A stretch of DNA of 42,647 nt from Candidatus Bathyarchaeota archaeon (GTDB lineage Archaea; Thermoproteota; Bathyarchaeia; TCS64): positions 1 to 42,647 of the forward strand of contig JBDRQD010000043.1 in the NCBI GenBank assembly GCA_043826455.1, read 5' to 3'. The notes below the pieces were generated by a model. That model did not search any database, was not told the DNA's origin, and saw only the letters and a list, made by a program, of their open reading frames with translations. The translations under genes and the position numbers were made by a program. Every line of letters begins with the position of its first letter. Within the stretch, counting starts at the first letter, position 1. Shown piece by piece: positions 6,498 through 37,295 of the stretch.

Positions 6498-6698
6498 GTG
6501 AGTTACTTGAATAAGTTCGACAAGTGTGAGCTTGAGCCTAACATCCTGTGCGACATGGAGTACAACTGCCTCAACTGCGCCAAACAGGAGAACCGGTGGG
6601 CCGAGATATGGATCAAGGGGCCGGCGAAGATAGTTGAGGCGGAGGCGGACGAGAAGTCAGAGGTGCGGGTGCCCGCCAAGAGCCTGTCCACACGCTAG
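6498..6698 (+). CDS. Small Cys-containing hypothetical protein (66 aa)
   Basis: ORF track; C-x6-C-x5-CxxC; GC3-biased codons; TATA-like sequence upstream. Confidence 0.6.
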   Translation: MSYLNKFDKCELEPNILCDMEYNCLNCAKQENRWAEIWIKGPAKIVEAEADEKSEVRVPAKSLSTR

Positions 6699-6819
6699 GA
6701 GACCCGTCTCAAGCCGTTTTTACGCCGATGATAGCCGGCGGCGCCGTCCGCGGACCATGAAAACTGTCAGCCCAGTCTACACACAAACCAACATAACCCG
6801 CTGCGGCGAAGTCAGCGTG

Positions 6820-7134
6820 ATGCATGTTCGCTGTAGAGCACTTTGTCGTATCGTTCTCACTGGGCTTGCTATTAGCGCTCCCGGTGTACTACTGGACGTC
6901 GACCACTGGTACTGCGTCGTCAAGGGGCTGGGTAACGCCAGATGGCTTCATTACAGTCTCGCGTCTGCTCCGGCTGTTCTTGTACTTCTCAGTGTCCTCT
7001 GGGGTCTTGTTGCTACTACATTTACGGTTGGATGGGGTGCTTTAGAGCCGGCGGTGGTGGAGGCCCCGGTGATCGAGTTTCCATTGCTGGGCTCGGGTGT
7101 CCGGGCCGCGGATGCTTCGCCCAGGGATGACTGA
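6820..7134 (+). CDS. Membrane protein, frame B of dual-coded locus: carries DxDH and RxxH motifs of YdjM-like metallohydrolases (104 aa)
   Basis: ATG at 6820 inside track ORF 6634..7134; IVLTGLAISAPGVLLDVDH...ARWLHYSL followed by a hydrophobic helix; GC3-rich codons in the centre and in the 7046-7134 tail. Confidence 0.6.
   Translation: MHVRCRALCRIVLTGLAISAPGVLLDVDHWYCVVKGLGNARWLHYSLASAPAVLVLLSVLWGLVATTFTVGWGALEPAVVEAPVIEFPLLGSGVRAADASPRDD
6824..7045 (+). CDS. Membrane protein, frame A of dual-coded locus: N-terminal His helix and C-terminal HxxxD helix (73 aa)
   Basis: MFAVEHFVVSFSLGLLLALP...GVLLLLHLRLDGVL; two hydrophobic helices corresponding to first and last YdjM motifs. Confidence 0.6.
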   Translation: MFAVEHFVVSFSLGLLLALPVYYWTSTTGTASSRGWVTPDGFITVSRLLRLFLYFSVSSGVLLLLHLRLDGVL

Positions 7135-16581: not shown

Positions 16582-16785
16582 AAACGAGGTCGGTGTGTGA
16601 TGGGGCTTCTGGTCTTGGCTGGTTGTTTTTCTTTTTCCTAGGATGATCCATGTGGGTATGGCTGCTATGGTGAGCCAGATGATCCACTGGTGTTGGTCGA
16701 GGTAGCCTTCGGTTATGAGGGCTAGGAGGATTAGGGCTGCGAAGATGATGGGTAGCTCCCTGGGCTTGATGGATAGCTGGGTCAT
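16546..16785 (-). CDS. Small membrane protein
   Basis: ORF track; two hydrophobic helices; abuts the upstream ORF. Confidence 0.6.
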   Translation of the reverse strand: MTQLSIKPRELPIIFAALILLALITEGYLDQHQWIIWLTIAAIPTWIILGKRKTTSQDQKPHHTPTSFIQYSGISDSTK

Positions 16786-17085
16786 TCAGTTTTCCTTGAG
16801 GGTTTGAGTCGTGGCTGTGCATTTATGGGTTTTTCGTCTCTCCTGGATTGTTAGGATTGTGCCCGCGGTTAGTGTTGCGGTGCCTATGATGAGGTTGGTT
16901 ATGGTGTATTCTGGTATGGTGTGCGCGTCGTAGCTGTGGGGTATCCAGAACTGCCACCACTGGAGCTCATTATAGACGCGGAGGTAGGTCTCAGCTCCAA
17001 CATCGTCTAGGCTCAGATATGCAGATGTAAGGAATAGGAGTCCAGTGAGGATGAGCGCAGGGCCGACTAGCTTCGTCCTTTGCAT
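16786..17085 (-). CDS. Small membrane protein
   Basis: ORF track; N- and C-terminal hydrophobic helices. Confidence 0.65.
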   Translation of the reverse strand: MQRTKLVGPALILTGLLFLTSAYLSLDDVGAETYLRVYNELQWWQFWIPHSYDAHTIPEYTITNLIIGTATLTAGTILTIQERRKTHKCTATTQTLKEN

Positions 17086-17098
17086 AGATGATTCTTGT

Positions 17099-17230
17099 CT
17101 ATTTCTTGTTTTTATCGGCAGCGCTTTGGGCTCGAGCCGCGAAGCTTCCCTTTTCCACTTTTCCGTCGCCTTTTTTGGCTTCGGCGCTCTGGATTCTGGC
17201 CGCTGCTTCAGATGTCATCTTCTTACCCAT
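17099..17230 (-). CDS. 43-aa SMP/LEA-like hydrophilic microprotein, not in the ORF track
   Basis: MGKKMTSEAAARIQSAEAKKGDGKVEKGSFAARAQSAADKNKK*; resembles the seed-maturation-protein pattern MT-x-x-x-AA-x-IQSAE...GG-x-AA-x-AQSAA-x-x-N; TATA-like sequence upstream. Confidence 0.78.
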   Translation of the reverse strand: MGKKMTSEAAARIQSAEAKKGDGKVEKGSFAARAQSAADKNKK

Positions 17231-17362
17231 TTCGATCAAGTATAGGGGAAATTGATTTTAATATAAACATTTCATTGAAGGAAATGCATCTATTCTTGAG
17301 CGGTATAAAAGAAAAAACATTTAAAAAAAAATTCACGCAATGATGACATTGAATGCGCGGAA

Positions 17363-17737
17363 ATGACTAGAGAGGACCTGATAATCAAGCTCTGTTCCTG
17401 GTTCATTCTGGGGTGTCTACTGGTGTTTCCTGTTGGATACTATACGGGTGAATGCGAGGACACTCATGCGGATGGCCCAGGGTTCTCATTTTATATCTCA
17501 AAGTGTGAAGAAGGCTACCCCTATCACTGGAAATTCAGTAAATATGATAGTAGAGTGGGCTACTCCGTTACATATGATGTGGCTAATTTTTATCGAGACG
17601 GGATCATACTCTCATTCGTATCTCCCTTCATCCTTGAACCAGCTCATTTTATACTCAGGAGGTTAAAGTCAAAGGAAACCGTGTCATATCGATATATCAG
17701 TCCCCATTGGAAGAGCACGCGCTCATCCCATGGTTGA
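17363..17737 (+). CDS. Hypothetical membrane protein
   Basis: ORF track; two TM segments around a Cys-pair loop. Confidence 0.6.
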   Translation: MTREDLIIKLCSWFILGCLLVFPVGYYTGECEDTHADGPGFSFYISKCEEGYPYHWKFSKYDSRVGYSVTYDVANFYRDGIILSFVSPFILEPAHFILRRLKSKETVSYRYISPHWKSTRSSHG

Positions 17738-18358
17738 CAGAGCTCCTAAAGCGTTCATCAGGCTATGTGTCAACCAGCCAGGCAAGATACTTCCGGACCT
17801 GGAACGCAGCCACCCCATGACCCAACCAGCTAGAAACTGTACAACAACCACTGCCCAGAAACTCAGACTAACCAGCAATAATAGTAGATGAGGGAGCAGG
17901 AAGATGAAAGCCTGTATGGTGTTCCCTTTCATGAACCCAAAACGCCTCTCCAGGTATCCGCCTAACAAGCCGCGGAAGAGGATTTCCTCTCCAAGGGTAA
18001 CGTAGAACGCCTCCCGCTGCAATGCATACATGAATGAGGATAGACTCAGAGACCAACCTGCATACACTGAGACACTTACCATGGGGCTCTCAAGGACACT
18101 GGAAGGAACCATGCGTAGAACCAGCCACATCAGTCCCCCTACAGTGACGGCGACTCCGACGCCCTCTAGATAGAAGGCGCCGTTACACCCCTTCAAACCG
18201 AGGTTCTTCAGCACACTCCTCCATTTCTCTCCGCGTCTAATCTGAGAGGTGAAGTAAATTAGGGAAGGAATACTGAAGAGGATTAGCTGCGCTGGAACAT
18301 CCAAAACCTTTCTCCAAAAAGGTATTTTTGTAAATATTATAAAAGATGGCTTAACCAA
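17723..18358 (-). CDS. CPBP (CAAX protease/Abi) intramembrane metalloprotease
   Basis: EEILFRG, FLLPH, HSLMN motifs; multiple TM; start may be TTG near 18304. Confidence 0.88.
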   Translation of the reverse strand: MVKPSFIIFTKIPFWRKVLDVPAQLILFSIPSLIYFTSQIRRGEKWRSVLKNLGLKGCNGAFYLEGVGVAVTVGGLMWLVLRMVPSSVLESPMVSVSVYAGWSLSLSSFMYALQREAFYVTLGEEILFRGLLGGYLERRFGFMKGNTIQAFIFLLPHLLLLLVSLSFWAVVVVQFLAGWVMGWLRSRSGSILPGWLTHSLMNALGALSTMG

Positions 18359-18511
18359 CGTTTGTGATACGCATATACTCGTACTGCGTTCGCAGGTGCG
18401 CTCATTTTGTTTTATTAGTGCAATCTCTCGTTATTGTCTGCGCGCGACGGCGTGTGTGAGGTCAGTTTTTCATTAATAAAAATTAAATGCTTAACGATTT
18501 ACATTTACTCT

Positions 18512-19621
18512 ATGTCTAATGTGAAGATCGTAACGAGTGATAATGTTACGATAAATGAAATCCCTCAAGTTAGCGTCTCAAGGGAGGATTTCATCCGTAT
18601 TGTGGACTCACTTGAGTCAGAGATTGTGTTTTCCTGCGAGATTGATTACCAAAGAAAGGATGCTTACATGATTTTCTATAAAGGAAGCATGGTCTACACT
18701 CAGTTCATGAAAGTTGAGACATGGGACGAATTCAAGTTAATGCACATGAAAATGCAGGAAGGTGGTTTTATTAAATATGATAAGTTCCTTGATGCGCATG
18801 ATTATGGAATTAGTTCAAATGGCGAATACGAAGAGTTTGTTAGTTCCGATGTATATTACGATCAACGTGGATACTATTCAGAGAAAGAAAAGAAAAAGAA
18901 ACTCTATAATTTGTATCTCCATGTGAATAAAAGTGGTTTTGAGAATTTTTCACAGTATAAGAATGCCTATAATCTCGGAATATCTGACCCTATGGAATAC
19001 AATCTCTTCATTTCCTCGGAATGGGGAGAACGAGATCACTATAGAAGCTATGATAAAAATGATTACATTGAGTTCTGTGACGCTAGGAAAAAAGGATTCA
19101 CAAGTAAAGATGAATATAGAAAGGCCGTTAAACTTGGTTTTGAAGATGCTAAAATATATAGTATGTTTGTTGAAAGCGGGTTGAAGGATAAGAAGGATTT
19201 CGATTACGTGGTCTACGAGTTCCCTTCAACTGTTGACGAGGAATTGAATAAAGCAGCGCAGAGTAAAAAAGAGGCTGATGCGGCGTTCAAAGATTCTCGG
19301 TACCAAGAGAGCGTATTATAGAACTTTATCCAGGTCGAGAAGTTATTGAACCTAGCGTATGTCATTTCACATAAACAAAAAATTGAGAGTCAAATCGATT
19401 TCGACGACCTGTTGAAGGAATTGAACTCTAAATATGGTCTTGGTATTTCTGGTTTGAGCAAGTTTAGATATTGTAGGCAACTTCGGAACAAGGTTGCTCA
19501 TGAAAACTGTAATGTAACAGAAGAAGAGGCTCTGTCTGTGAAAAACTATCTTGAAGAGATAGTATCAATATTAATGCCTTTCATTAAATCAACGCTAGAA
19601 ACGGAGTTCAAGAACCTATAA
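18512..19621 (+). pseudogene. Repeat-containing protein with C-terminal HEPN domain interrupted by one in-frame TAG (19319-19321)
   Basis: Track ORFs 18434..19321 and 19346..19621 are in the same frame; read-through gives RYQESVL*NFIQVEKLL...RQLRNKVAHE (RxxxxH); N-terminal G(F/I)-x-x-x-x-(E/Q)Y repeats. Confidence 0.75.
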
Positions 19622-19729
19622 TCGTGTCTTTCTTTCAATATTGTATATTTTTTAAATACTATATTTCGGCTTATTTAATTAATAATTAGTTTTATATTTC
19701 AGAAATCGGTCATAATCTAGGTGTGATAT

Positions 19730-20260
19730 TTGGTTGAATATTATTTCGACATTGAAACCACTGGTCTTGACCCTGAGAAGGATAAAATCATCACGATTCA
19801 ACGACAACTCATTAAATTCGGTAGACCAACTGGGCCGATAGAAATCTTGAATACTTGGGATTCTTCCGAAAAAGAAGTGCTTGAAGAATTTCTCTCAATG
19901 GCATACTGTCCAAACATGTGGGATTTTGTGTATATTGGTACTAACCTTCTGTTCGATTTCAATTTTATAAATGAAAGGGCGAAAAAGTGCGAGCTTCGGG
20001 GAACTGATTTTGCTTATTGTTGTGAGCGGCCTCATTTGGATCTGAAACATGTTATGATACTGCTCAATGAGGGGCGTTTCAAAGGATACTCGGATATATT
20101 AGGCAAAGGAACCCAGTTAGACAACACTTTGGTTCCTCAATGGTATTACGAAAAAAAGTATGGAAAAATTAAGCAGTACATTGAACTTGAGGCTGAAAAG
20201 ACGATCGAATTCTACGGGAAACTTATAAAATGTCTTCCCACAATCAGAAATAAATTATAG
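19730..20260 (+). CDS. RNase H-like DEDD 3'-5' exonuclease (RNase_H_2/YprB-like)
   Basis: YFDIETTGLD, EKEVLEEF, GTNLLFDFNFI, HLDL motifs. Confidence 0.85.
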   Translation: MVEYYFDIETTGLDPEKDKIITIQRQLIKFGRPTGPIEILNTWDSSEKEVLEEFLSMAYCPNMWDFVYIGTNLLFDFNFINERAKKCELRGTDFAYCCERPHLDLKHVMILLNEGRFKGYSDILGKGTQLDNTLVPQWYYEKKYGKIKQYIELEAEKTIEFYGKLIKCLPTIRNKL

Positions 20261-20356
20261 TGTTTGAAAAAATCAAATAATTTCAATACGATAATTGACT
20301 TGACCACATTATTTTTAAATAAAATTTAAATTACCAATTGTTCCATTTCCATCAAT

Positions 20357-20953
20357 ATGTATCAATTACTCTATTTTCTAAGTGGGATAGTCATAGGTTT
20401 TTTTGTGATGTTCGTAATTTCCTCCATTAAAAACGCAGGAATTGGACGCATTATAACAATTTCGATATTATTTATATTGGTCTACGGATTCTTACAATTA
20501 TTTCCTTATGATCCCAATGACCTATACCTTAATTTATGTAGTGAGTTTTTAGGTATAATATCAATAGGAGCCATATGGGATTGGTTGAATGTGAGGAAGG
20601 AAAACAGATTAAAACAAAGGGTTAAAAAACACACTACAATGGTTCTTATTGAATGTATGAAAGAAACATCAGATATAATTGATCATTTACAAAGAAAATC
20701 TATAAACCATGAGTTACATATAAACAGGTTAAAATCATGTCAAAGAAGATTACAAGTGTATTGGGCCATTTCTTTTGATAGGATTAATGAACAGATGCTA
20801 GAAAATATTTCTAAACTCGACTTTTTAATTGATCGAATTATTTTATGGTGTGAAAAAAATCCAGATGTAAACACAAATAGAACCTTAAAAAGATTACTTG
20901 ATGTTTCAAAAAAAATTATTGATGACGCAATCAAGCGGGAATCGGTTGAATAA
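20357..20953 (+). CDS. Hypothetical membrane protein (3 TM + helical cytoplasmic domain)
   Basis: ORF track; AT-rich; hydrophobic N-terminal half. Confidence 0.7.
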   Translation: MYQLLYFLSGIVIGFFVMFVISSIKNAGIGRIITISILFILVYGFLQLFPYDPNDLYLNLCSEFLGIISIGAIWDWLNVRKENRLKQRVKKHTTMVLIECMKETSDIIDHLQRKSINHELHINRLKSCQRRLQVYWAISFDRINEQMLENISKLDFLIDRIILWCEKNPDVNTNRTLKRLLDVSKKIIDDAIKRESVE

Positions 20954-21371
20954 ATTTTTCATATTCTGTTTGATTCAAATAATTTTGTGTACACCAATAA
21001 TGTAATAATTGAGTTGTTGTTTTAAACTCGAATCCAAAATAGTTTGCTTGTATTTTATTCCATTCTTCATCCAAAATTAAGACACAGTTATCATTTTGAT
21101 GAGCATAACAAAATACGTAATACTCACCAGAATTTCGATCATTTTCAAAAATCCAATCTATATCAACATTAGCTTCAACATAAACAATCGAACAATATCG
21201 GGAAACTAATTTAAGCTCTCCTGAGGTAGGTTTTTCTAATAAAAATTCTTCATATACTTGTTTTGGAATAATATAGTGGCACTCAACTAAACTTTTACTT
21301 AAACAAACATATGGTTTTAATGTTATGAATAAACTATTTAATGCAGGTTTATCTAAAACGAAATTTATCAT
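20931..21371 (-). CDS. PIN-domain protein (DUF3368/COG2405-like toxin)
   Basis: FVLD at the N-terminus, IPKQVYEE, SGE, VLILDE; ATGA overlap with the upstream antitoxin-like gene. Confidence 0.72.
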   Translation of the reverse strand: MINFVLDKPALNSLFITLKPYVCLSKSLVECHYIIPKQVYEEFLLEKPTSGELKLVSRYCSIVYVEANVDIDWIFENDRNSGEYYVFCYAHQNDNCVLILDEEWNKIQANYFGFEFKTTTQLLHYWCTQNYLNQTEYEKFIQPIPA

Positions 21372-21922
21372 TTTGAAACAAACTCATCAAATGATTTTTC
21401 TGATATTTCTAACCATTTGGCCCCTGTATATTTACTTATCAAACCTTTTCTGTATAGAGACTTAGTAAGTTGTATTTTATTTTTTAATAATCTGCTTAAT
21501 TGAGTGGAGTTTTTTTTACTCTCAGGTAATAAATTATACATAAAAAACATTAATTCATCATCATCCATATTTTTTAATCTATTGTATGCAAGATTTAATT
21601 GTTTGATAGTTTCTTCATCATATGTTTTTATTATTTCTTTTGTAACTTCTTCTCCTAAAGGGGTAATTTCACAATTTTCATCAAATTTATCTATCAAATC
21701 ATATGAATTTAATTCCTCAAGTGATTCTTGAATTTCATACGATACATCTCCTTTTCTAAAATTTGAAAAAGTAACGTAATTTTTCTTTTTAATATATTGA
21801 AAATATCTTGTTATCTTATGTATATGAAGTTCATTAAGCGAATCACCTTTGTGAAAAGATAGAATCAATAACGGTATTTCTACAGATGGGTCGTCTATGC
21901 CATATTCTTCCATGAGAGACAT
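21368..21922 (-). CDS. Antitoxin-like protein: YwgA/Panacea-like winged helix + UPF0175-like C-terminal HTH
   Basis: HIHKITRYF..F.NFRKGDVSYEI..SLEEL..YDLI..ITPLG; ELMFFMYNLLPE; LYRKGLISKYTGAKWLEIS..SF. Confidence 0.65.
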   Translation of the reverse strand: MSLMEEYGIDDPSVEIPLLILSFHKGDSLNELHIHKITRYFQYIKKKNYVTFSNFRKGDVSYEIQESLEELNSYDLIDKFDENCEITPLGEEVTKEIIKTYDEETIKQLNLAYNRLKNMDDDELMFFMYNLLPESKKNSTQLSRLLKNKIQLTKSLYRKGLISKYTGAKWLEISEKSFDEFVSK

Positions 21923-21952
21923 TAAATATGAATGTTTAGTATTAGTTAATAA

Positions 21953-23086
21953 ATGTCACCAGCATTCGAGGTAGTGCGAGCAGAAAAACCGGAGGGTTTT
22001 CCTGCTTTAAGTAAAGAAATAAAGATATCCTCCAGTGTGACGGCTTATACACCTACAAAAAGTTATAGAAATTATAAAGATACAAATTTTAATACAACGC
22101 AATTTGTAGAAATTACACGTAATTTTCAGATGGATAGATTAAAAGCATTATTCGAAGGAAAAAGAATTAAAATACTAGAATCGATTCCTCATGAAATCGT
22201 ACCAAGTAAGATTAATTTTGTCATTTTTAACCTTGATATAAAAAACATACCAGATGATGATATTATAGAGAGTTTTACACACACATTATATAAAAATAGT
22301 GTTAGTTCATACTTTCTGCCAACCATTAATATGAACGCTTTAAAATCTCCTATAGAAAAAATCAACAGAAAAGGAGAAACCACCATTAAAAATGTAGAGG
22401 ATGAAAATAAAATAATAAAATATATGCATATGCTTGATTTGATGGTTGACATAACACAAGTATGGAATAAAAAAGAAATTATTGGAACAATACCTTTGAT
22501 TGCTCCAAAATATGTAAATCCAATAATAGATGTGTATTTAAAAAAAGAGATAAAATCCTTCTCAATAGATGCTAATCTCAAAGATGTATTTTCTGGTCAA
22601 AACATGACGCATCTTAAAAATATTTTATTTAGAATAAGTAAAGTAGTGCCTCTATCTGAGAGTTTTATATATTTAAACAATCCTGGAATCGGTCATTTTG
22701 AGAATAATTACACCAAAGCAGACGATTTTCTAAGTTTAATCGCTGGAATCGATAATATTAGTGAGATTTTTAAAAGAAGATTATTTCGCCCAACTCCACC
22801 ACTTCCAGGTGTACCAAAAAGACCGTCAAGATGTAAAATGTTCCAAAATTTAGATTATCGTTATCAATTGTTTGATACTTATGGACGAGCGAGTGTTCAT
22901 TTCGGTGTCGATGTAAATCGTGACTTTATTAAAAATTATAATCAAGAAAAACAACTAGAAGAAACTATTAAAATTAGAAGTCATATTAAAGAAGGTACAT
23001 TATATTCACATATCGACTCTAAAAAAATACTTGACGAAAAAATGAGAAAACAATTATCCGAATTAGAATCTAAACTTTCTTTTTAA
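21953..23086 (+). CDS. Hypothetical protein, possible tRNA-guanine-transglycosylase-like TIM barrel
   Basis: 377-aa AT-rich ORF; N-terminal beta hairpin ending YTPT, alternating beta/alpha pattern, IAGIDNIS near the C-terminus; fold assignment tentative. Confidence 0.5.
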   Translation: MSPAFEVVRAEKPEGFPALSKEIKISSSVTAYTPTKSYRNYKDTNFNTTQFVEITRNFQMDRLKALFEGKRIKILESIPHEIVPSKINFVIFNLDIKNIPDDDIIESFTHTLYKNSVSSYFLPTINMNALKSPIEKINRKGETTIKNVEDENKIIKYMHMLDLMVDITQVWNKKEIIGTIPLIAPKYVNPIIDVYLKKEIKSFSIDANLKDVFSGQNMTHLKNILFRISKVVPLSESFIYLNNPGIGHFENNYTKADDFLSLIAGIDNISEIFKRRLFRPTPPLPGVPKRPSRCKMFQNLDYRYQLFDTYGRASVHFGVDVNRDFIKNYNQEKQLEETIKIRSHIKEGTLYSHIDSKKILDEKMRKQLSELESKLSF

Positions 23087-23160: not shown

Positions 23161-23400
23161 TCACATTCTCATAACAATAGGCTGCGAAACATGGAAGGAC
23201 GCCACATAAGACACGTACACTGCCCTTGCCAGAGACCAGAACCTATCATCGTGAACCTCTTCAACTCAACTAAAATGAACCCTACCAGACTTTCAAAGCT
23301 CGAACATGGGCGAGTTAAGCTCACTGAATAGATCAGGATCAAACGGGGCACCAAGCCACGGCACCACTATCAAAGGATTACCCTCACCGCTCCTGTGCCC
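23161..23400 (-). pseudogene. 3' remnant of a terminase large subunit (nuclease domain)
   Basis: PFDPDLFSELNSPMFEL*KSGRVHFS*VEEVHDDRFWSLARAVYVS; HDD-x-x-W-x-LA motif; in-frame TGA at 23293-23295 and 23266-23268. Confidence 0.75.
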
Positions 23401-23464
23401 CCGCAGGCAGGTGGTTCTCCACTCGCTGTCAAGCGACTGTGCACACGCCAAAACATTTACACTA

Positions 23465-23791: not shown

Positions 23792-24094
23792 CTAAGACTC
23801 CGGGGGCTTCCCTATGGTGTACCCCACCAGCCGCCCCTCCCTCTCCAGCCTCTCCAACGCAGCCACCTCAGCCTCCAACTCCTCCACATCCACCACCAAC
23901 CCATAACACACCCGCACAGCCCTGATCAACACATCCAGCGCCCTCATCTGAACCTCCTCAAACCCACCCGGATCAGCCGCCACCCGGTCACACACCCGCA
24001 TCACATCCTCCAAACGCCCAATATAGCTCAGCCTCCTCTCAGCCGGGTCAACCCTGACTCTGCGGCACGAAATACCGACCTCCAACACGCCCAA
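23792..24094 (-). CDS. Helical/coiled-coil hypothetical protein, positional candidate for small terminase
   Basis: ORF track; DVEELEAEVAALERLE coiled coil; upstream of the terminase remnant. Confidence 0.5.
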   Translation of the reverse strand: MGVLEVGISCRRVRVDPAERRLSYIGRLEDVMRVCDRVAADPGGFEEVQMRALDVLIRAVRVCYGLVVDVEELEAEVAALERLEREGRLVGYTIGKPPES

Positions 24095-24097
24095 GTC

Positions 24098-24129
24098 CCT
24101 TCACCGGATGTAGCCTTCACCGGATGTAG
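24098..24129 (+). repeat. Perfect 16-bp tandem duplication CCTTCACCGGATGTAG x2
   Basis: Read directly at 24098-24113 and 24114-24129. Confidence 0.9.
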
Positions 24130-24745
24130 ACCAAGTCGCTCCTCGCAAGACGCCTAAAACACCGGCTCGGCACCCCCAGAAAGAGCCTCCAATCCTTACA
24201 GGCCCCAACTAAAATCATGCTATCCGGGCTGACCCGCACCTCAGACACATCCAACTGCCGGATTAAGACAAGCCATCTATGGCCAGCCCTCCCTCATGTA
24301 GACCCTTACAGCACCCCCCGGAGGCTAGGGCAGCGCACACGTCTCCAATAATCAGATACATCACGCATTGTTTATGCCATTTTTAGCATGCATGTCATAA
24401 TTTTTATTACAGAGGTTTTCGGTTAACCGTGTTCTGTAGGTCTCCTGAGCAAGGGATAACGAGGCATCTCACTGAAGAAAAAGCACGAAATAAAAGATGG
24501 AATTTTTTTTCCGCCTTATACCCTCTAGGACGGTATAAGCCGCCTCTCAGGAACTTCACCACGCCAGCACCACAGCCCCAGAGAGGGGGGAGGGGGTAGA
24601 GCAAGAAAAACCGGAAACAGGGGCCCCGCGCCAAAAGGGGCCCGGGAAACACGCCTTATCGATCCCATTCTATGCAAAAACGCCGTCCACTCCACACAGA
24701 ATCACGGTCCGTCCAGCACATCAGAACGACTCAGACGAGGGCTGG

Positions 24746-24994
24746 TGTGCAAAAAACGTAGGGGGGGTACCCCCTAATGGCGGTTTTTTTAGTCATTCGG
24801 GATCACCCGCACACCGACGAGACGCCTGAGCGCCCCAGATAAATTGACGTGAAAAAAGGTAGGGGGGTATCATTTTATGGCGGTTTTTTCAGTCATAAAA
24901 CGAATTAACTCATCCCGCGAGGCCATAACCCGGGGCATATGTGCAAAAAACGTAGGGGGGTATCGATTTTAGGAAGAAAAAACCTCCTAAAATC
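24746..24994 (+). repeat. Three G-string iterons (GTG(C)AAAAAA(C/G)GTAGGGGGGTA) plus a terminal 10-bp hairpin
   Basis: Copies at 24746, 24848, 24940; first two continue ATGGCGGTTTTTT.AGTCAT exactly 100 bp apart; GATTTTAGGA-N10-TCCTAAAATC at 24965-24994. Confidence 0.85.
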
Positions 24995-25142: not shown

Positions 25143-25443
25143 TCAAACCCATACGCCTCTCAGGCTGTTGAGCATCGCCTCGCTCCCGACCCGCCTCACC
25201 TCCGCCAGCCCCATACCCACATCCGTCACCGCGGGGGCGATCTTAGGCTCGTAGCTTCCGTCGGGCAGCCGCGCCTCCAGCCCGTCCTTCAGGCTCGTCA
25301 CCGAGACCGTCTGCGGCGGCCCGTAGCCCACCTAGGCGCGGCCCGGCACCCGGACCTGGGTCGTGAAAACCGGGTTCTTCCTGTGGGCCAGGACGCTTGA
25401 GACTACGTACCCGGTATAGTCCACATCGGTGATGGTCTTGTCC
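25143..25443 (-). pseudogene. Decayed paralog of the 3' end of the 906-aa tail-tip gene
   Basis: DKTITDVDYTGYVVSSVLAHRKNPVFTTQVRVPGRA*VGYGPPQTVSVTSLKDGLEAR/LPDGSYEP...LNSLRGVWV aligns to about 30186-30567 with a TAG and a 27-codon deletion. Confidence 0.9.
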
Positions 25444-25516
25444 GCCGCCGCGTACGCGTAATCTATAGGCCGACTCGTACAAAGTTTAAATTCACATCCC
25501 CTCAACCAATTAAGAC

Positions 25517-30185: not shown

Positions 30186-32906
30186 TCACACCCACACACT
30201 CCTCAGGCTGTTGAGCCCTGTCTCGTACCTCATGCGCCTCAGCGCCGCCAGGCCCAGGCCCACGTCGGCTACGGCAGGCGCCACCCGAGGCTCGTAGGAG
30301 CCGTCCGGCAGCCGGGCGGCGGCCAGGTCAAGGTCGCATACGTATCCGCCCCCCGGCGTGTACCTGTGCTGGGCCCTGACTATCTGGAAGCTCCGCGCCT
30401 CCAGGCCATCCTTAAGACTCGTCACCGTCACCGTCTGGGGAGGCCTGTACCCAAGCTGGGCGCGGCCCGGGGCCCGGACCTGGGCCGTGACGACCGGGTT
30501 TTTCCTGTGGGCCAGGATGTTTGAAGCGACATACCCGGCGTAGTCCACATCGGTGATGGTCTTATCCACCAGACGGAGCGTCCGCTTACCGTAGGCAGCC
30601 TGGCTCGTGGAGTCGCTGGCCGTCCCCGCCTTCTCGTATCTGACGAACCTGAGGTTGTCGATGAGGAAGCCGCCGGTCCCCACCTGAGACATGTGCACTG
30701 CCTTGATCTGGACGTTGGCTATGACGCTCCCCGGGTTCCCCGTCTTGCTCATGGAGGCCAGGTCCATGGTGTACTCGTGCCAGGCAGCAGCGCTCTGAGG
30801 CGTGATCCCTGTCTCTTCATAGTAGTCGGTGACCCACAGCCAGCCGCCCCGCCAGATGCGCACCTCCAGGCTGTCTACGCTCAGCCCCGAGCCATACTTT
30901 AACTGGAACTTGAGCGAGTCGAAGCCGGTGATGTCTAGGTCCGGGAACTCGACCCGCATACGGTAGTAGCTCCCCGGGTTCGTGGTGTTGAAGTGGACGC
31001 TAGCCGAGCCCGCCACCTTGTCCCCTGTGTCGCTCTGCGGGTAGCCGCCGTCTGTGGGGTCCGGGCTGCTCCACCCCTCCACAGACTCGGTTAACGCGTC
31101 CCCGTCCGAGGGCTGTGTCTCCTCCTCGAACACGATGACCCGGACATCGTTGGTCAGCCTTGGGCTGCCCTTGATGGATTCCTTCACCTGGATGTCCAGG
31201 ATGTTGGGGGTGCCGCCGCCGCTGCCATCCGTGACGCTGAGGGGGCAGACGAAGACCCCGTACTTCTTGAACCTTACCGTTCCGCCCGTGTCCACCCAGA
31301 AGTTGGCCCCAGTCTCGCTCGAGGCGAAGGTGGCCGTCTCCGCCAGCTTCTCCAGCAGCGACCAGACGCCCTCCTGGTGGAACCTGTTGACGATGGCGCG
31401 GTTGGTGGTGTCCTTGTCCTGGTACAGCTCAGGCGACTCGTCCAGCATGTCGTCGACGATGGTGCTGATCTGGGTCGCCGAGGCGTACTCTTTGGAGAAG
31501 GTGCGCTCCAGCAGTATCTCGCCCAGGTCCTCGCACACAAGCTGAGTCACTGGGTTGTCCGGTTCCCCCAGGGTGAGCCTATCAATGACGCGCCCCGTGA
31601 ACAACTTACTCACCAGACTCTCAGACGCGGCCCCCAGGTACGCCATCACGACGCATCCCGGCCCCGCCCTCTGCGCACCGCTCAACGGACTCGATGTGTA
31701 TAAACGGTAAACCTCCGCGTCGGAAAAGGCCCCTATATAGATTCGTGTATCATCCAGACAGCCTGTTAAGGGGTGTATAGCCGCGTTGTACTTACCTAGA
31801 TACTTGGCGCGATTTACAGACGGAAACACCGGCACCCCGGACATGCTCAACTCCTCAATGAACACCCCGTTCCTGTAGAACCGGACCGTCTTAGCCGCAT
31901 AGTCACAGACCACGGCTACATGAGTCCATACGCCGTCACACCCAGCGAAGAAGTTGTTAGATTGGGCTGTACGGTAGGCTGTGCCGTCGGCGTACTGCCA
32001 TGTAAAGTGATACGAGCCGGGGTTCCTATAGCACCAGATGAACCCTATAGTCGAGCTCTGGGCACCGTCCGAGATGAGGGTCTGGTAGACGCCAGCGACG
32101 TAGCTAGGTTTGATCCATGTGGCGAAGGTGAGAGCGGTGCCGCTTAAGGCAAAGGCTACTGTCTGAACATAATCGTCCGACCCGTCGAAACTCAGAGCCT
32201 TCCCATATTTACCGTCAACCCATAATGGGCCATTATAAAGGTGCCCGGTGCGCCCCCACGGGCTAAGATCATAAGCCCTCGTATCCTGCCCCTCATCCAT
32301 GGGCAGCCAGAGGGCCAGCCTAGGGTAGGCAGGGTCCCGGAGCATGGTGAGACGGAGCCCTGAGACGGCGGTGGTGGTCACCAGGTCGGCCACAAGCTCC
32401 TCTATCTCCGCGGGCACCAGAGGCGGGTTCTTTAGGACACAAGCGTAGTCGTAGTCGATGACGGCCTGGGCGTAGACCTGGCTGCTCCGGGCGTACAACT
32501 TAACATACTTCACCGTCTTCCCGGAGGTTAGCTGGAGCCACACAGCCTCGAAGCTGGTCGGGGCATCAATCCACCCCAAGGAGGTGGACGACGCGTCAGT
32601 GTACTCCACCTCAACCTTGTACTGTGGCGCCGTGTCCCTGCCCCTGAGGCGAACCCTGAACACGGGATATGTGCTGGTGCTGAGGTTGAGGCCACTGATG
32701 TCTCGCCTCCAGCCACAGCCGTTGACCGCAGCACCCTCCGTCACAGCCATGGACGCGTAGTCCCCGGCGACGTCATTCACGTTACCGAAGCTCTCAGAAG
32801 CCGCCGACTGGAACTTGACCCAGAGGCTGCTCCTGAAACAATCGTCCAAGAACCCGGGCTCCTCGTAGAGCTCCACCCTGCACTGGGCCCAGATGGGAGT
32901 CGGCAC
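30186..32906 (-). CDS. Tail tip/hub-like protein with inserted LamG (concanavalin-like) domain and carbohydrate-binding-like modules
   Basis: Follows the tape measure; WLPMDEG..WVDGKYGKALSFDGSDDYV..WTHVAVV..FYRNG..GCLDDTRIY LamG; DSTSQAAYGKRT hub-like motif. Confidence 0.75.
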   Translation of the reverse strand: MPTPIWAQCRVELYEEPGFLDDCFRSSLWVKFQSAASESFGNVNDVAGDYASMAVTEGAAVNGCGWRRDISGLNLSTSTYPVFRVRLRGRDTAPQYKVEVEYTDASSTSLGWIDAPTSFEAVWLQLTSGKTVKYVKLYARSSQVYAQAVIDYDYACVLKNPPLVPAEIEELVADLVTTTAVSGLRLTMLRDPAYPRLALWLPMDEGQDTRAYDLSPWGRTGHLYNGPLWVDGKYGKALSFDGSDDYVQTVAFALSGTALTFATWIKPSYVAGVYQTLISDGAQSSTIGFIWCYRNPGSYHFTWQYADGTAYRTAQSNNFFAGCDGVWTHVAVVCDYAAKTVRFYRNGVFIEELSMSGVPVFPSVNRAKYLGKYNAAIHPLTGCLDDTRIYIGAFSDAEVYRLYTSSPLSGAQRAGPGCVVMAYLGAASESLVSKLFTGRVIDRLTLGEPDNPVTQLVCEDLGEILLERTFSKEYASATQISTIVDDMLDESPELYQDKDTTNRAIVNRFHQEGVWSLLEKLAETATFASSETGANFWVDTGGTVRFKKYGVFVCPLSVTDGSGGGTPNILDIQVKESIKGSPRLTNDVRVIVFEEETQPSDGDALTESVEGWSSPDPTDGGYPQSDTGDKVAGSASVHFNTTNPGSYYRMRVEFPDLDITGFDSLKFQLKYGSGLSVDSLEVRIWRGGWLWVTDYYEETGITPQSAAAWHEYTMDLASMSKTGNPGSVIANVQIKAVHMSQVGTGGFLIDNLRFVRYEKAGTASDSTSQAAYGKRTLRLVDKTITDVDYAGYVASNILAHRKNPVVTAQVRAPGRAQLGYRPPQTVTVTSLKDGLEARSFQIVRAQHRYTPGGGYVCDLDLAAARLPDGSYEPRVAPAVADVGLGLAALRRMRYETGLNSLRSVWV

Positions 32907-33526
32907 TAGCCTCCCCTCCTCATACGCTCCTCGAGACGCGGCCCCAGCTCACGGAGCCACTGGTCCACCTCCAGGCCGCTGGACGGCTGACGCTCGAAGG
33001 TGACGAAGATGGGTCCCAGGTGGGTCTGAGAGGCCGGGACCACGTACTCTCCCCGGTGCAGCATGTATAGGCCCGTCCGGTTCACAGGGCCTCCCGCCTG
33101 CATGCTCTGAATACGGCTGTAGACCATGGCACCTGCCGCTATGGCTAGGGGGATAAGCCACCACTGGCCTGAGAGGGTGGTGAGGATGGCCTGGGCTGCC
33201 GAGGCCGCCGCTGTGTTCTCCCGGAGCCTCCTGGTGAGGGCGGTCAGGTTGCTGACCACCTGGATCATGCTCATGAAGCTCGTCAACAGCGCCACCGGGT
33301 TCATATCGTTGATGGCCCGGCTCGTCTGCGTGACAGCGAGCCTGGTCGAGTTCAGAGACCTGAGAGTAAGGGACAGCGTAGCCAGGGTGCCCCCACTCTG
33401 AGCCTGCACCCCCTGAAGCGCAGCCGAGGCCTGGCTGGCGCTCTGGGCAGCCGCGTTGGCCGAGGCCGCGGCCTCTCCCAGCCCCGTTACCTGAACATTG
33501 TACTCAAGGTCCACACGGTTCGCCAC
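32906..33526 (-). CDS. Very short tape-measure-like protein (206 aa)
   Basis: Ala/Ser-rich helical body; C-terminal MQAGGPVNRTGLYMLHRGEYVVP motif typical of TMP ends; position after chaperones. Confidence 0.72.
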   Translation of the reverse strand: MANRVDLEYNVQVTGLGEAAASANAAAQSASQASAALQGVQAQSGGTLATLSLTLRSLNSTRLAVTQTSRAINDMNPVALLTSFMSMIQVVSNLTALTRRLRENTAAASAAQAILTTLSGQWWLIPLAIAAGAMVYSRIQSMQAGGPVNRTGLYMLHRGEYVVPASQTHLGPIFVTFERQPSSGLEVDQWLRELGPRLEERMRRGG

Positions 33527-33903
33527 TACACCACTCCCGCAGCCCTGTCTAGCATCTCACGGCCCACACTCAGACGCCCCGCCAGGACGCCCTGAAGCAG
33601 GAAGGGGCGGGCCGGCATCCTGCTGGTGCCGTCGTGGACGTGCCGAGCATAGTCCACCTCTCGCCCCGTAAGAGGATTCACGTGGCCCCCACCCCCAGCC
33701 ACCAGCTTAGCAGCTAGGGGACCCGGACGCTCAACACGGATCGAGCCGCGCAGCGCTCCGGTGCGGACGGGGCAGAAGGCCCGGGCGAACTCCAGCATCG
33801 CGGGCACCTCCAGGGCCAGGTCAGCGGCCTCCTGGATGCTCTGAGGGATAAGGGACAGCTCGGCCCCTAGGTCCTCCAGACGCAGCGTTTTACTTACCTT
33901 CAC
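33526..33903 (-). CDS. HK97 gp10-like neck/tail-completion protein
   Basis: CPVRTGALRGSI, YARHVHDGTSRMPARPFL. Confidence 0.85.
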   Translation of the reverse strand: MKVSKTLRLEDLGAELSLIPQSIQEAADLALEVPAMLEFARAFCPVRTGALRGSIRVERPGPLAAKLVAGGGGHVNPLTGREVDYARHVHDGTSRMPARPFLLQGVLAGRLSVGREMLDRAAGVV

Positions 33904-34112
33904 CTTGCTCCCCTCCTGAGCCTATTAAGCTCCTCCTCCAGCCGCCTCTTCTCCCGGTCCTGCACGCCAGCCACCGCCTCCAAGTAGACGCCCAGCCTCT
34001 CCACGAACACCGCAGGCTGGACCGCCAACTGGTCAAGCGTCCAGCCCGTGGCCACACAGAGGGCCACATCCTCCGTCAGTGGGCTCGGCTTCCCTCGCTT
34101 CACAGCCTCCAC
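33900..34112 (-). CDS. Tail assembly chaperone extension (gpT-like), probably made as a -1 frameshift fusion
   Basis: GWTLDQL..QP motif; in the -1 frame of the upstream chaperone, directly after A AAA AAA. Confidence 0.7.
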   Translation of the reverse strand: MEAVKRGKPSPLTEDVALCVATGWTLDQLAVQPAVFVERLGVYLEAVAGVQDREKRRLEEELNRLRRGAR

Positions 34113-34432
34113 TATTTTTTTCGCTCATCAACCGTGACGCCGTTGATCCGCAGGCAGTAGGAGATCATCTCCTCCACCAGCTCAGGCGGCTCAAGGCCGT
34201 GGACCGCCTCCACTGTGATGGGCAGAGACTGCCCCTCCTCATCAACCAGGTCCCACCCCTGGAGGCACCCGACCAGCATCAGGTCGTTCAGGGCCCACGG
34301 GTCCACTTCAGGCTCAAGCCCCGAGGCCCCCCTCTCCCACCTGGTAGCCTTCCTGAGGGCCTCCTGCTTCATCCCGTAGGTCCACGTCCTGAACGCCAGT
34401 TTATGGCCTCTGATCTCGACTTCATGCCTCAT
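34112..34432 (-). CDS. Tail assembly chaperone (gpG-like)
   Basis: Between tube and TMP genes; GWDLVDEEGQSLPITVEAV motif; ends ERKK on a slippery A7. Confidence 0.75.
   Translation of the reverse strand: MRHEVEIRGHKLAFRTWTYGMKQEALRKATRWERGASGLEPEVDPWALNDLMLVGCLQGWDLVDEEGQSLPITVEAVHGLEPPELVEEMISYCLRINGVTVDERKK
34115..34121 (-). other. Candidate -1 programmed ribosomal frameshift heptamer A AAA AAA
   Basis: Minus strand CGA AAA AAA TAG TGG; a -1 slip reads AAA AAA ATA GTG GAG into the next ORF. Confidence 0.75.
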
Positions 34433-34438
34433 GGCTCA

Positions 34439-35320
34439 TCACGTGAAGTTGTGCTCCAGGTAGCCCCCCGTGAACTCTACGCGGCACGCCACCAGGTCCT
34501 CTGGCTTGATTATGGGGTCCACCAGCCGCATCTTCCCCTTACTGAACTGAAGATACTTCGAGTTAGGCAGCACCAGCTTCAGGTAGAGCTCCGTCTGGTT
34601 GATCAGGTAGCTGAGGTACGTGCCGTCCTGGAGGTTCATGGTGAGCCTCACATCACAGAGGCGCTCCATCTCCTCCAGTCCCTGGAGTTGCTTGGTGGCC
34701 GTGCTGGTGAACACATGGACGGCGCTCAGCTGGTTATCTACCCTGAACTCCCAGTCCGTGACGTCCGGTATAGTCGTCCAGTCTGTGCCGTTGGTGCTCA
34801 CCTGGACGTAGCAGTCCGACCACTCCCAGACGGTGCCGGGCAGCGCCCCGTAGCTGTGTATGGTGGTGGTCTTGGTGCCGTAGAGCTTGCCGATCATCTC
34901 AGCCGACCACACCACAGGCTCCCCTATGCTGCACTGGACAGATAGGACGTCCGCCTTCAGCCCCGTCCAGTAAAGATAAAGCTGGTTGGAGGCGTCCCGG
35001 TACAGCTTGGTCTCCGCGAAGAAGTTGTACCCACCGAGGATGAACTTCTGGAAGTAGTCGCCCAGCTGACCCTGAAGCCACCTGAGCCCAAGCTTCACGT
35101 TCTGGCGCCGGGACAGAACCGTCAGGGGTCTGCCCTCGCTGCCTCCGTCCCGGAGCACGAACACCCGGTTTAGCTCAGGGTCTAGGCTCGGCTTCATCTC
35201 AGTGACGTAGCCGACCCTGTACAGAGTGGTGGGAGTAGCCCCAGGGCTGCCCCCGTAGCTGGCCTCGTCGTAGGGCTTGTGCCCGAACGCGACCTGATCC
35301 TTACCCTTGTACCTAACCAT
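34439..35320 (-). CDS. Major tail tube protein
   Basis: EASYGGSP N-terminal motif, beta-rich, WEFRVDNQL; between terminator and chaperone genes. Confidence 0.75.
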   Translation of the reverse strand: MVRYKGKDQVAFGHKPYDEASYGGSPGATPTTLYRVGYVTEMKPSLDPELNRVFVLRDGGSEGRPLTVLSRRQNVKLGLRWLQGQLGDYFQKFILGGYNFFAETKLYRDASNQLYLYWTGLKADVLSVQCSIGEPVVWSAEMIGKLYGTKTTTIHSYGALPGTVWEWSDCYVQVSTNGTDWTTIPDVTDWEFRVDNQLSAVHVFTSTATKQLQGLEEMERLCDVRLTMNLQDGTYLSYLINQTELYLKLVLPNSKYLQFSKGKMRLVDPIIKPEDLVACRVEFTGGYLEHNFT

Positions 35321-35720
35321 AATACAGCACCTCTACTCGACACTGACTTCTGAACAGCGGAGGCCTGAGGCTTCCCTCGTCAAGGTCACGCCATGAGGAG
35401 ACGCTCAGCGCCTCAAGGCCTCCACCTGGATCAGTACACTTGGAGTGGAGTATCCGGTCCACCTCCTGGAGCATCTCCCACCGCTGAGCCGCGTCGCCCC
35501 GGGCCCAGGCGTCAACAAAGTACACTGCCTCGAACCGACGCTCCGCCTGCGCCGGGTTCTCGCTGAACCCCACCTGACGGGGCTGCGTGAGCACGTGGCT
35601 CACCACCACCTGAGGAAACTCAGCCTTCTCCATGAGCCAGTCCGCGCTAAACGCAGGCTTGTAACCCAGGCCCCAGCCGCCCCCCAGGAGCTCCAGGAGC
35701 GTCACCTTGGGGTCCGTCAA
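35313..35720 (-). CDS. Tail terminator/completion protein
   Basis: FPQVVV..., YFVDAW, EVDRILH pattern; position before the tube gene. Confidence 0.65.
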   Translation of the reverse strand: MTDPKVTLLELLGGGWGLGYKPAFSADWLMEKAEFPQVVVSHVLTQPRQVGFSENPAQAERRFEAVYFVDAWARGDAAQRWEMLQEVDRILHSKCTDPGGGLEALSVSSWRDLDEGSLRPPLFRSQCRVEVLYYG

Positions 35721-36103
35721 CTCATCGCCCTCTCCCCGTACACCTTACGGTAGGCCGTGGTGTGCTCCAAGCCCGTGACGTGGTAGCGGACGCCGTCCAC
35801 CTCCACCTCATACCGCTCCTCATTCACCGGTGCCCAGACGGGCAGCAGCACCTCCAGGTCCGCCCTCTTAACCTCCCCCGGCGGGAGCCGGAGCTCGCCT
35901 GGAGACAGCTTCACCATTGCCTTCACGGTCAAGGACGTCTCCAGGTAGACTGGCTGCCCGTAGGAATCACGGCTTGAGAGTGTCTGGTGGACTACCACCA
36001 CGTCTACGCCCCTTAGCCGGGCAAGCTCCTCGAAGCGCAGCGCCTCAGGATTAGGCATCATGACGTCGAAGCCCTCACCGAACTGCTTGTACATGAAGCT
36101 CAT
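35717..36103 (-). CDS. Head-closure/head-tail adaptor protein
   Basis: RDSYGQP, VEVDGVRYHV motifs; position. Confidence 0.68.
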   Translation of the reverse strand: MSFMYKQFGEGFDVMMPNPEALRFEELARLRGVDVVVVHQTLSSRDSYGQPVYLETSLTVKAMVKLSPGELRLPPGEVKRADLEVLLPVWAPVNEERYEVEVDGVRYHVTGLEHTTAYRKVYGERAMS

Positions 36104-37173
36104 GACTCGTACAGCCCGACCTTGGTTACGTTGGTCACGTTGGCCCCTTGGTTGACCGCTGAGCCGGTGACGCCGAATATCTGGCCGGGGCCGATGACCA
36201 CGTGGTCAGTGTATCCCTGAAGGTCGATGCCGTTGGGGGTCACACTCTGTCCATCGATGATGAGGCTGCTCAAGTTGATCCTGAAACACTTGTTGGCGGA
36301 GCCGTCGTCGTCTATGTCTATGGCGTCCCCGCCTGTCCTGTAGAATATGTGCCCCGTGCAGACGATGGACTCGACTCTACGATACATCTTGAAGCCGACG
36401 CCCACCGTGTTGAAGTGCTGGTTGTTGTGGAGTTGGCAGAGCCGCACCTTGCCCTCAGTCCCGTCCAGGGCGCCTATCTCTATGTCCCGGTTGTTGGCGT
36501 AGAAGTAGTTGTTCAGGAAGTAGCTCTTCAGTATCACCCCAGAGCCCACTCCTCCCTCTAGCCTGATACCGGCCTGGGCCGCGTTTTCGAACAGGCAGTC
36601 CTGGACCCACAGGTTCCACGAGTCCCCGGTGCTCTCCACGTGGAAGGCGTGCCTCTTGGCCTGGTTGATATAGACGCGGTCCATGTGCCAGTCTGATACC
36701 CGGTCCAGGTGCACAGTGTCCCGGTCCCCTGAGCCGGGGTAGAGGGTCATGTCGTAGAGGCCACCGAAGTGAACCGCGTCCCCGACTTTGCCGATGGCGA
36801 TACAGTGGACGCCGTTGGCCACGTTGAACCTGATCATGGTCCCGTAGTCCAGGTCGTGCCAGCACATCCCGGCCCCGTACAGGTGCACCGGGTATACCTC
36901 GTCCAATGTCCACGGCTGCGTCTCAGTGACCTTGCCCTTGGGCAGCCAGACGGCTCCACCCGTGTCAGCGTACACGTCATCGATGGCCTGCTGGACGTTG
37001 CCGGCGGCCCTCTCCCAGATGTTGCCCCGGCTGTTCACTATCCGGGTTCTGTCCCTGATGAAGGCCTCGGCGCCGGGGCCGAGCCTGGCCTCCAGGGCGT
37101 CAACAAGTGTATCGTAGTGGAGGTAGGTTATGGAGTCCGGGGGATACGGCTTGATGAACGCAGGCAACATCAT
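36100..37173 (-). CDS. Right-handed beta-helix (pectin-lyase-like) protein, tailspike/fibre-like
   Basis: VQQAIDD...GGAVWLPKG...VHLYGAG start and N-x-F-x-x-N repeats; ATGA overlap with the next gene. Confidence 0.78.
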   Translation of the reverse strand: MMLPAFIKPYPPDSITYLHYDTLVDALEARLGPGAEAFIRDRTRIVNSRGNIWERAAGNVQQAIDDVYADTGGAVWLPKGKVTETQPWTLDEVYPVHLYGAGMCWHDLDYGTMIRFNVANGVHCIAIGKVGDAVHFGGLYDMTLYPGSGDRDTVHLDRVSDWHMDRVYINQAKRHAFHVESTGDSWNLWVQDCLFENAAQAGIRLEGGVGSGVILKSYFLNNYFYANNRDIEIGALDGTEGKVRLCQLHNNQHFNTVGVGFKMYRRVESIVCTGHIFYRTGGDAIDIDDDGSANKCFRINLSSLIIDGQSVTPNGIDLQGYTDHVVIGPGQIFGVTGSAVNQGANVTNVTKVGLYES

Positions 37174-37189
37174 CCATCCTTTACGATCA

Positions 37190-37295
37190 CTATTTTATTC
37201 CGACATATTTATACTATTTTTATAGCTGGCATAATATGATACGTATTATATTGTCTTCATTAAATGCCAGGCATTTATAGCCCGTTATAAAATCT
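37190..37295 (-). promoter_or_regulatory. AT-rich promoter region of the tail operon with nested dyads
   Basis: TATA-like tracts; ATAATA-N7-TATTAT at 37231-37249; CTGGCAT...ATGCCAG at 37226-37270. Confidence 0.45.

Follow-up and report, generated by a model that had tools for sequence, protein, structure and literature searches.

The subject of this analysis is a block of viral tail genes in a 42,647-nucleotide stretch of DNA, the whole contig JBDRQD010000043.1 of a Candidatus Bathyarchaeota archaeon (TCS64 lineage; assembly GCA_043826455.1), which we call the window. The window is one of the 81 contigs of its genome (97.7% complete, 7.2% contaminated), which is designated G000; C numbers denote contigs, L numbers denote loci, and o80, o156 and the gene abbreviations are labels coined in this analysis. 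The block occupies positions 30186-37173 of the minus strand and consists of nine intact open reading frames (ORFs; Table 1), whose intergenic gaps range from -8 to +6 nt. It is preceded by 121 nt with 29% GC, and the GC content at third codon positions of its genes is 0.75-0.85 vs a genome median of 0.82. A first-pass annotation, made from the DNA letters alone, had described nine uninterrupted, tightly coupled genes with an AT-rich promoter-like start and a codon style resembling the GC-rich backbone, and our data agree with it on all these points. One independent Logan contig (29064-39549), from a run that is possibly the source sample, bridges both junctions of the block at a depth of 13.7 vs 12.5 in the flanks. 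As this single contig crosses both junctions at flank-like depth, an assembly chimera was ruled out.

Table 1. Features of the tail block and of the decayed region downstream of it, listed in order along the minus strand.
Feature	Position	Strand	Basis or remark
Promoter-like element	37207..37239	-	BRE/TATA-like core 37207-37223, AT-rich boxes upstream; opens the block
Beta-helix spike/appendage protein, 357 aa	36100..37173	-	PF13229 above cut-off
Head-closure (stopper) protein, 128 aa	35717..36103	-	homologues match phrog_501, best E 3e-5; window copy E 0.08
Tail terminator, 135 aa	35313..35720	-	position; 1 of 8 homologues matches phrog_176, E 7e-3
Tail tube protein, 293 aa	34439..35320	-	PF18906 above cut-off
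Tail assembly chaperone 1, 106 aa	34112..34432	-	position; phrog_9046 (function unknown), E 5e-12
Tail assembly chaperone 2, 70 aa	33900..34112	-	homologue matches phrog_9001, E 1e-4
HK97 gp10-like neck/tail completion protein, 125 aa	33526..33903	-	phrog_5, E 2e-10
Short tape measure protein, 206 aa	32906..33526	-	position; homologues match phrog_15478
Tail tip protein, 906 aa	30186..32906	-	PF13385 (LamG), phrog_52; carbohydrate-binding-like and LamG domains
Decayed second copy of tip 3' end	25146..25448	-	stop and 81-nt deletion, both also in G029
o156 fragment (gene after the tip in complete copies)	24147..24272	-	41% identity over 44 aa, E 0.003
Small-terminase-like reading frame	23792..24100	-	homologues directly precede TerL in relatives
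TerL C-terminal remnant, 2 stops	23173..23451	-	only terminase in the window

Of the functions first assigned to these genes, those of the spike, the tube, the neck protein and the LamG part of the tip are backed by profile matches, and those of the head-closure protein, terminator, second chaperone and tape measure by position or weak matches of homologues. In other genera the spike is replaced by a ~503-aa beta-helix protein. The tube is predicted to be non-contractile, and the set has no sheath gene. Structure prediction for the tube and the tip, a check proposed at the outset, agreed in fold class: the tube model resembles tail-tube folds and the tip model resembles folds of carbohydrate-binding module (CBM) type, both being of low confidence (pLDDT 47 and 52, respectively) and used as fold-class support only. 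The tip gene is mosaic, its LamG part being swapped relative to the sister species G029 (49-59% nucleotide identity).

We did not find a capsid, a portal or an intact terminase gene at the locus; the nine genes stand alone, and the packaging genes downstream are decayed. The region at 23.2-25.4 kb of the window is a decayed version of the downstream part from o156 to the large terminase subunit (TerL), and two histidine kinases and a response regulator separate it from the intact tip. The first-pass annotation had rightly described the window's only terminase as a stop-containing remnant; it had overlooked the decayed second tip end and, on other contigs of the genome, two TerL genes that are intact. 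The dead tip remnant (window 25146-25448; L037 533-835) is 97% identical between two species, with a synonymous divergence (dS) of 0.22 in the adjacent kinases, perhaps owing to recent exchange. All three internal tail-gene deletions that we examined keep the reading frame (window 25269-25275, L008 1688-1900 and L035 4492-4515).

The absence of capsid and portal genes, first noted for the window, extends to the whole genome, where searches with Pfam, with proteins of relatives and with a capsid profile detected neither. An intact TerL exists twice, on C38 and on C18. The C38 block comprises an adaptor gene running off the contig end, o80, cargo, o156, a holin-like gene, an ABC/GNAT fusion, the small terminase subunit (TerS) and TerL, with o156 to TerL intact; these are the pieces that flank the nine-gene block in complete copies. 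The contig ends within the adaptor frame, and its end overlaps no other contig. The holin-like gene is so called from its size, its single strongly hydrophobic stretch and its position, and it matches no family. This tail-less block (G000:C38 51009-58347; L005) also carries a toxin-antitoxin-like pair and a tubulin/FtsZ-like gene (PhuZ match, 55371-56735), and similar tail-less sets are present on G025:C281 and G087:C133. The TerS-TerL pair on C18 (5109-7074; L003) is an intact orphan of a second type, with AT-rich cargo near a tRNA-Glu and no other virion gene seen. No tRNA was detected in the window, no integrase among the 40 window ORFs scanned, and no replication or integration gene at the window or in the C38 block. 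The integrase matches of the genome sit on contigs other than the window's (C56 480-4400, C37 1088-6441 and C57 84067-85380), two of them beside tRNAs; those on C56 and C37 are accompanied by similar small unknown genes and point to a separate family of integrative elements.

In relatives, the nine genes belong to a longer set of ~20 genes (~15.8 kb) with the order portal-protease-decoration-capsid-adaptor-[nine tail genes]-o156-holin-like-ABC/GNAT-TerS-TerL. We found complete sets at the metagenome loci L146, L147/L148, L154, L158, L162 and L166 and in genome G061, and in G020 and G024, which belong to the same genus as G000, the five genes from portal to adaptor lie directly upstream of the tail block. 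The start of the spike gene is in view on 17 of 25 GTDB contigs: four are contiguous with head genes, four have the head behind an insert, five are spike-first, two are adaptor-first and two are cut. It is also in view at 31 of 64 metagenome loci (partly redundant), 16 of which are head-contiguous and one of which has the head behind an insert. The tube was found in 15 of 31 same-genus genomes with a single protein query, one match being a 29-residue fragment, and in 23 of the 79 genomes of the order with a profile; the capsid was found in 24 of the 79. Tube and capsid occur together in 13 of the 79 genomes, the tube alone in 10 and the capsid alone in 11, both single classes being inflated by incomplete metagenome-assembled genomes; inside the family, nine genomes are tube-only and six capsid-only. 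These numbers do not bear out the earlier suggestion that tail genes were selectively retained. We retrieved related tubes in 12 genome records (11 Bathyarchaeia/Bathyarchaeota and one bacterium), and in IMG/VR no tube was confirmed among one and among 50 candidates. The family sits at many different loci, with several copies or fragments per genome; tails are broken in G008, G013, G035 and G091, and at L164 the family tail is joined to a different head.

A viral origin is indicated by G061, where a tRNA-Ala on one side and an early module on the other enclose the full set, the whole making up an apparently complete provirus of ~41 kb (G061:C58 37657-78454; L255, L219, L220). The early module encodes an ATPase-like protein, ParB and a tyrosine integrase (PF00589 above cut-off). 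Beyond it lies a 13-nt repeat of the tRNA 3' end, a weak attachment (att)-like site (E 0.19) that would delimit ~41 kb. The spike gene of G061 consists of two overlapping frames. Same-genus G020 holds a G061-type early module on a separate contig, and the G061-type integrase occurs in eight of the 79 genomes, G000 not being among them at the threshold used. An integrase, lacking at the window, and a weak att-like repeat are found within the family. We dropped a claim that no integrase lies near the complete copies at metagenome loci, because only 1.4-4 kb upstream of the portal is in view there and the G061 integrase lies 11 kb upstream. We regard the family as a lineage of temperate viruses; its virion genes survive in host chromosomes in a split and partly domesticated state.

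The first-pass annotation had singled out the very short tape measure as a mark of this head-less block. The protein is indeed short, but the same holds for head-containing relatives: all 14 aligned homologues, copies with heads included, have 203-208 aa. Shortness is therefore a trait of the family, and we rejected the idea that it is a product of head loss. The tape measure sets tail length at, as a rule of thumb, ~0.15 nm per residue, so that 206 residues would give a tube of about 31 nm. Nine of the 14 homologues match phrog_15478 (best E 2e-4). The full-length short form was found in only one order among 301 genomes of the class; two matches outside it cover only the C-terminal motif, which is common to the ends of much longer proteins. 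The capsid relatives in IMG/VR are 27-59% identical, and those examined have genes of 382-618 aa at the tape-measure position; in more distant proviruses with related capsids this position, on which the label rests, holds genes of 382-779 aa. A profile of the protein gave no matches among PDB sequences, and in an Atlas search unnamed clusters ranked first and a tape measure cluster came at rank 26.

The promoter-like element has a 17-nt AT-rich core located 34 nt before the spike start, with one match in the window where 0.01 are expected. Its position and composition lead us to infer a promoter. The element was found at 12 loci at which the spike comes first in the block (at one via a specified variant) and at none of 27 where the adaptor abuts the spike, and it is missing from spike-first copies of other genera. 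A profile trained on nine sites scores two untrained sites, one before the spike and one before o156, at ~37 vs a genome background of at most 23.7. Across 37 genomes there are four exact matches, each in front of a spike gene and one newly detected; one-mismatch hits across genomes were at background level (three unrelated; seven for the reversed control), and we therefore restricted the count to exact hits and the longer profile. Some 100 nt upstream of the motif sites are loosely alike. In G010 and at L198 the order is head, adaptor, o80, cargo, motif and spike, and at L136 the motif lies on both sides of the tail block. Based on these arrangements, the head-less start is a natural split point of one subtype, at which a head-less tail with its own promoter can arise; this configuration alone is no sign of a tailocin.

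We then consider how the tail genes have evolved, with trees of tail, capsid and TerL computed with FastTree and EF-2 as the host reference. Pooled ratios of nonsynonymous to synonymous divergence (dN/dS) of the tail are 0.16-0.25 in 17 of 17 pairs. In close same-genus pairs tail dS exceeds EF-2 dS several-fold (0.58 vs 0.11, 0.48 vs 0.18 and 0.41 vs 0.17) and plateaus near 0.5-0.6; hence, members of a host clade exchange tails. For the genus of the window, tree agreement holds at clade level, but tail dS does not follow that of the host and the loci vary. The host clade of the window comprises G000, G029, G008 and G013, with two block loci. G029 carries the block at the same locus: the kinases there have a dS of 0.22 and the tail genes of 0.5-0.7, and the LamG region is replaced. 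Capsid and portal genes were found in none of the four clade genomes (98, 91, 95 and 78% complete), and two of the four tails have large deletions, the tape measure being deleted in G008 and tip residues 746-877 missing in G013. The first-pass annotation had named the alternative of an ordinary provirus that is patchy, neutrally evolving and headed in close relatives. Heads do lie directly upstream in same-genus relatives, occurrence is patchy (14-15 of 31) and an integrase-bearing provirus exists, but evolution is not neutral, dN/dS being ~0.1-0.3 across relatives with a tail tree that tracks the host.

Considering the above results, we favour, with a probability of roughly 0.5, the view that the nine genes are a tail operon belonging to a grounded, i.e., immobilised, provirus. 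Transcription from the motif would yield one mRNA for the nine genes. The chaperones would keep the 206-aa tape measure at the tip, a small number of tube rings would polymerise to ~30 nm, and the terminator would cap the tube. Where relatives have heads, this tail would be joined to an HK97 head by the stopper and neck proteins; in G000, in which no head was found, no infectious particle would form. The genes may stay readable through recombination with related copies from within the host clade, and there may be a degree of residual selection.

Several observations weigh against this view. There is no stop across the nine genes, and 0.03 simulated neutral changes per site produced at least one stop in 300 of 300 runs. 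Decay of the packaging remnant dates back at least to the ancestor shared with G029, and the tip end is still under purifying selection: its last 206 codons (701-906) have a host-like dS of 0.20 relative to G029 and a dN/dS of 0.24 (95% interval 0.13-0.44). This suggests selection in place on the tip 3' end, in a local history that is mosaic, the adjacent dead remnant being 97% identical. The tail tree shares 13 of 19 splits with the EF-2 tree over 22 genomes. At up to one mismatch, the motif has a single other match in the 2.9-Mb genome, before o156 on C38. IMG/VR yielded no confirmed tube. Finally, in a sister genus, g27, the virion genes look domesticated, as described below.

These points lead to the second reading, that of a split and domesticated system resembling a gene transfer agent (GTA), which we regard as possible though tentative. 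The tail operon would act in trans with the holin-ABC/GNAT-TerS-TerL genes of C38 and with an unassembled head upstream of the adaptor. By the same tentative reading, a common promoter would co-induce tail and packaging genes, and small heads would package host DNA and deliver it through a tail of the length found in the gene transfer agent RcGTA. C38 holds the complementary adaptor and o80 and an intact o156-holin-ABC-TerS-TerL series, the motif, at up to one mismatch, precedes both blocks and nothing else in the genome, and this complementary split recurs in G087 and G017, with a different split in G007. We keep some probability for this reading because C38 ends exactly at the expected head position. 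On the other hand, the four genomes of the host clade gave no capsid or portal, G008 and G029 gave no adaptor, ABC-GNAT or full-length family-type TerL, and the locus is not conserved in the window's genus. Co-phylogeny is likewise two-sided: Mantel correlations with EF-2 are high for the tail (rho 0.69; 0 of 5000 shuffles, kin not being independent) and the capsid (0.71), but TerL follows the host poorly (0.51, or 0.32 inside the family, without the outgroup).

The best GTA candidate of the family is in genus g27, where G070 (C50 250040-286420; L212-L214), together with G072 and G068, carries a complete head-tail-terminase set split by host-gene inserts. G070 and G072 have the same locus and a host-gene insert inside the set. 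Sixteen virion genes show dN/dS of 0.11-0.30 and a dS mostly of 0.8-1.2 (range 0.52-1.79) vs 0.8-1.0 in host neighbours, and G070 has no stops in 4391 codons vs ~118 expected under neutral drift. On the 445-kb contig G070:C50 we found no PF00589 match and no replication or integration genes linked to the set. Two of five g27 genomes gave no tube or capsid match, and integrase-bearing members of the family still exist; both facts speak against the GTA interpretation. In G068 a second terminase type is spliced in. It is thus conceivable, with some doubt, that one Bathyarchaeia family domesticated a short-tailed virus into a GTA-like particle encoded in at least two separate operons, fully so in g27, with integrase-bearing ancestors persisting. 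Of the domestication proposed in the first-pass annotation, the complementary blocks behind a common motif and the g27 sets are in its favour, but for this copy we prefer the tail of a grounded provirus.

RcGTA is one of the closest known systems. According to PMC7296036, its tape measure has 113+83+20 residues, with five tube rings and a 49-nm tail, so that the tape measure length equals that found here; a ~15-kb head-tail cluster, a stopper and a terminator, and genes spread over several loci are described in that paper and in PMC5721377. Likeness to RcGTA, in organisation and size, extends to the ~15-kb cluster, tape measure size, stopper, terminator, few tube rings and genes at several loci. 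Unlike RcGTA, the present family has its terminase genes last, a tube of 293 aa, integrase-bearing members and variable loci, and it is known from genes alone.

A third reading, that of an F-type tailocin, was among those first proposed and is the weakest of them; we consider it unlikely. The clade would have shed its head genes while retaining a tail operon, under its own promoter, that makes a short non-contractile killing particle. The LamG/CBM tip, which is swappable, would bind surface glycans, the tape measure would puncture the membrane and the co-regulated holin-like protein of C38 would release the particle. It would fit that all clade-type copies with a visible start (G000, G013, L136 and L193) are spike-first with the motif, that head genes are missing from all four clade genomes, that the LamG region is swapped between sister species and that the tip end appears selected in place. 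Like F-type pyocins and monocins, the block is a head-less operon with terminator, tube, chaperones, tape measure and variable receptor-binding tip, and no sheath. Unlike the F7 pyocin, whose tube is capped by the terminator and whose tape measure has at least 611 aa (PMC12874032), the block keeps head-closure and neck genes, intact and with dN/dS of 0.15-0.27, and has a tape measure a third as long, whose most hydrophobic 19-residue window scores just 1.47. In the genome as a whole no head was found, but the adaptor and intact TerS/TerL are present on C38. The block is not at a fixed locus across the lineage. Relics with a head alone are as frequent as those with a tail alone, and a number of tails are broken, two of four in this clade; this argues against a tailocin.

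A pair of tail donor and acceptor seems less probable still. Phage-inducible chromosomal islands (PICIs) that form capsids encode head, adaptor and terminase without a tail, and by analogy the tail-less copies would be satellite-like, with the head-less blocks supplying tails in trans. Intact tail-less sets do exist in G025 (94% complete; neither tube nor tip detected) and G087, and homology points to such sets in C38 of G000 and in G017. They resemble the PICIs in gene content, but show no adjacent integrase, primase or other replication gene in the stretches examined, and the window holds the tail half. Loss of the stretch between two promoter-element copies, both of which are present at L136, is a simple explanation of the tail-less sets.

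Among archaeal elements, the thaumarchaeal Nvie-Pro1, CalSub-Pro and a third locus are morphogenesis modules that lack both att sites and replication genes; PMC6563490 suggests that they are remnants or GTA-like. Those are three divergent single loci, likened here by description only, whereas ours is a single family, found in 23 of 79 genomes, whose co-phylogeny and selection can be measured. Tailed viruses of the same host class, 'Fuxiviridae', 'Kunpengviridae' and BATPV1/2, have an HK97 capsid, portal, TerL, tail tube and, in some, an integrase (10.1101/2023.08.24.554615, PMC11705971). The descriptions available from these two sources mention no short tape measure and no GTA, and overlap with the eight proviruses of PMC11705971 is possible. 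The literature searched holds no description of this family or of a GTA or tailocin from Bathyarchaeia; subscription papers and supplements, with provirus lists that may contain members, were outside its scope. The family apparently comprises undescribed temperate viruses of siphovirus type, with short tails, that belong to a single Bathyarchaeia order of hosts.

Bathyarchaeia abound in sediments and almost none of them are in culture, and a lineage-wide GTA, if true, would be a route of gene exchange for them. It would also be a rare archaeal case in which one family offers a domesticated cluster, split operons and an active provirus for comparison. Even as a relic, the block defines a virus family, apparently undescribed, whose tail is very short and whose gene order has the terminase last. 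Two further searches gave null results: RNA reads from two runs, which scarcely contain the organism, did not cover the block, and no CRISPR array was found in G000, the 34 spacer units from two relatives matching no other sequence examined.

Some additional observations concern related elements. The small winged-helix gene o80 and variable cargo occur at differing operon junctions, after the adaptor, terminator or tip (L136, L175, L217 of G068 and L030 of G010), in the manner of an insertion cassette. Another family with related capsid genes is present in five of six genomes (G044:C18, G040:C10, G039:C79, G041:C51 and G042:C185); in two genomes these genes lie between rpoN/rpsB and an Sm gene, and the G040 set is truncated, with a stop in the capsid gene. 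A related integrase-bearing provirus at L071 (G053:C1) contains a CRISPR array of ~32 repeats (6001-8012) and has a 779-aa gene at the tape-measure position.

Within the window, a dispersed non-coding repeat with 54 matches in the genome is inserted in the decayed packaging region (24480-24960), beside a strongly skewed stretch. An intergenic repeat of ~123 nt occurs three times, on this contig only (39495-39620, 41620-41742 and 42403-42525). An AT-rich island (18434-23086; 27-41% GC) with unnamed genes and weak ABC-three-component CTD1 and RNase H-like matches is probably defence cargo, and the genes at 16760-18415 recur after TerL in G013.

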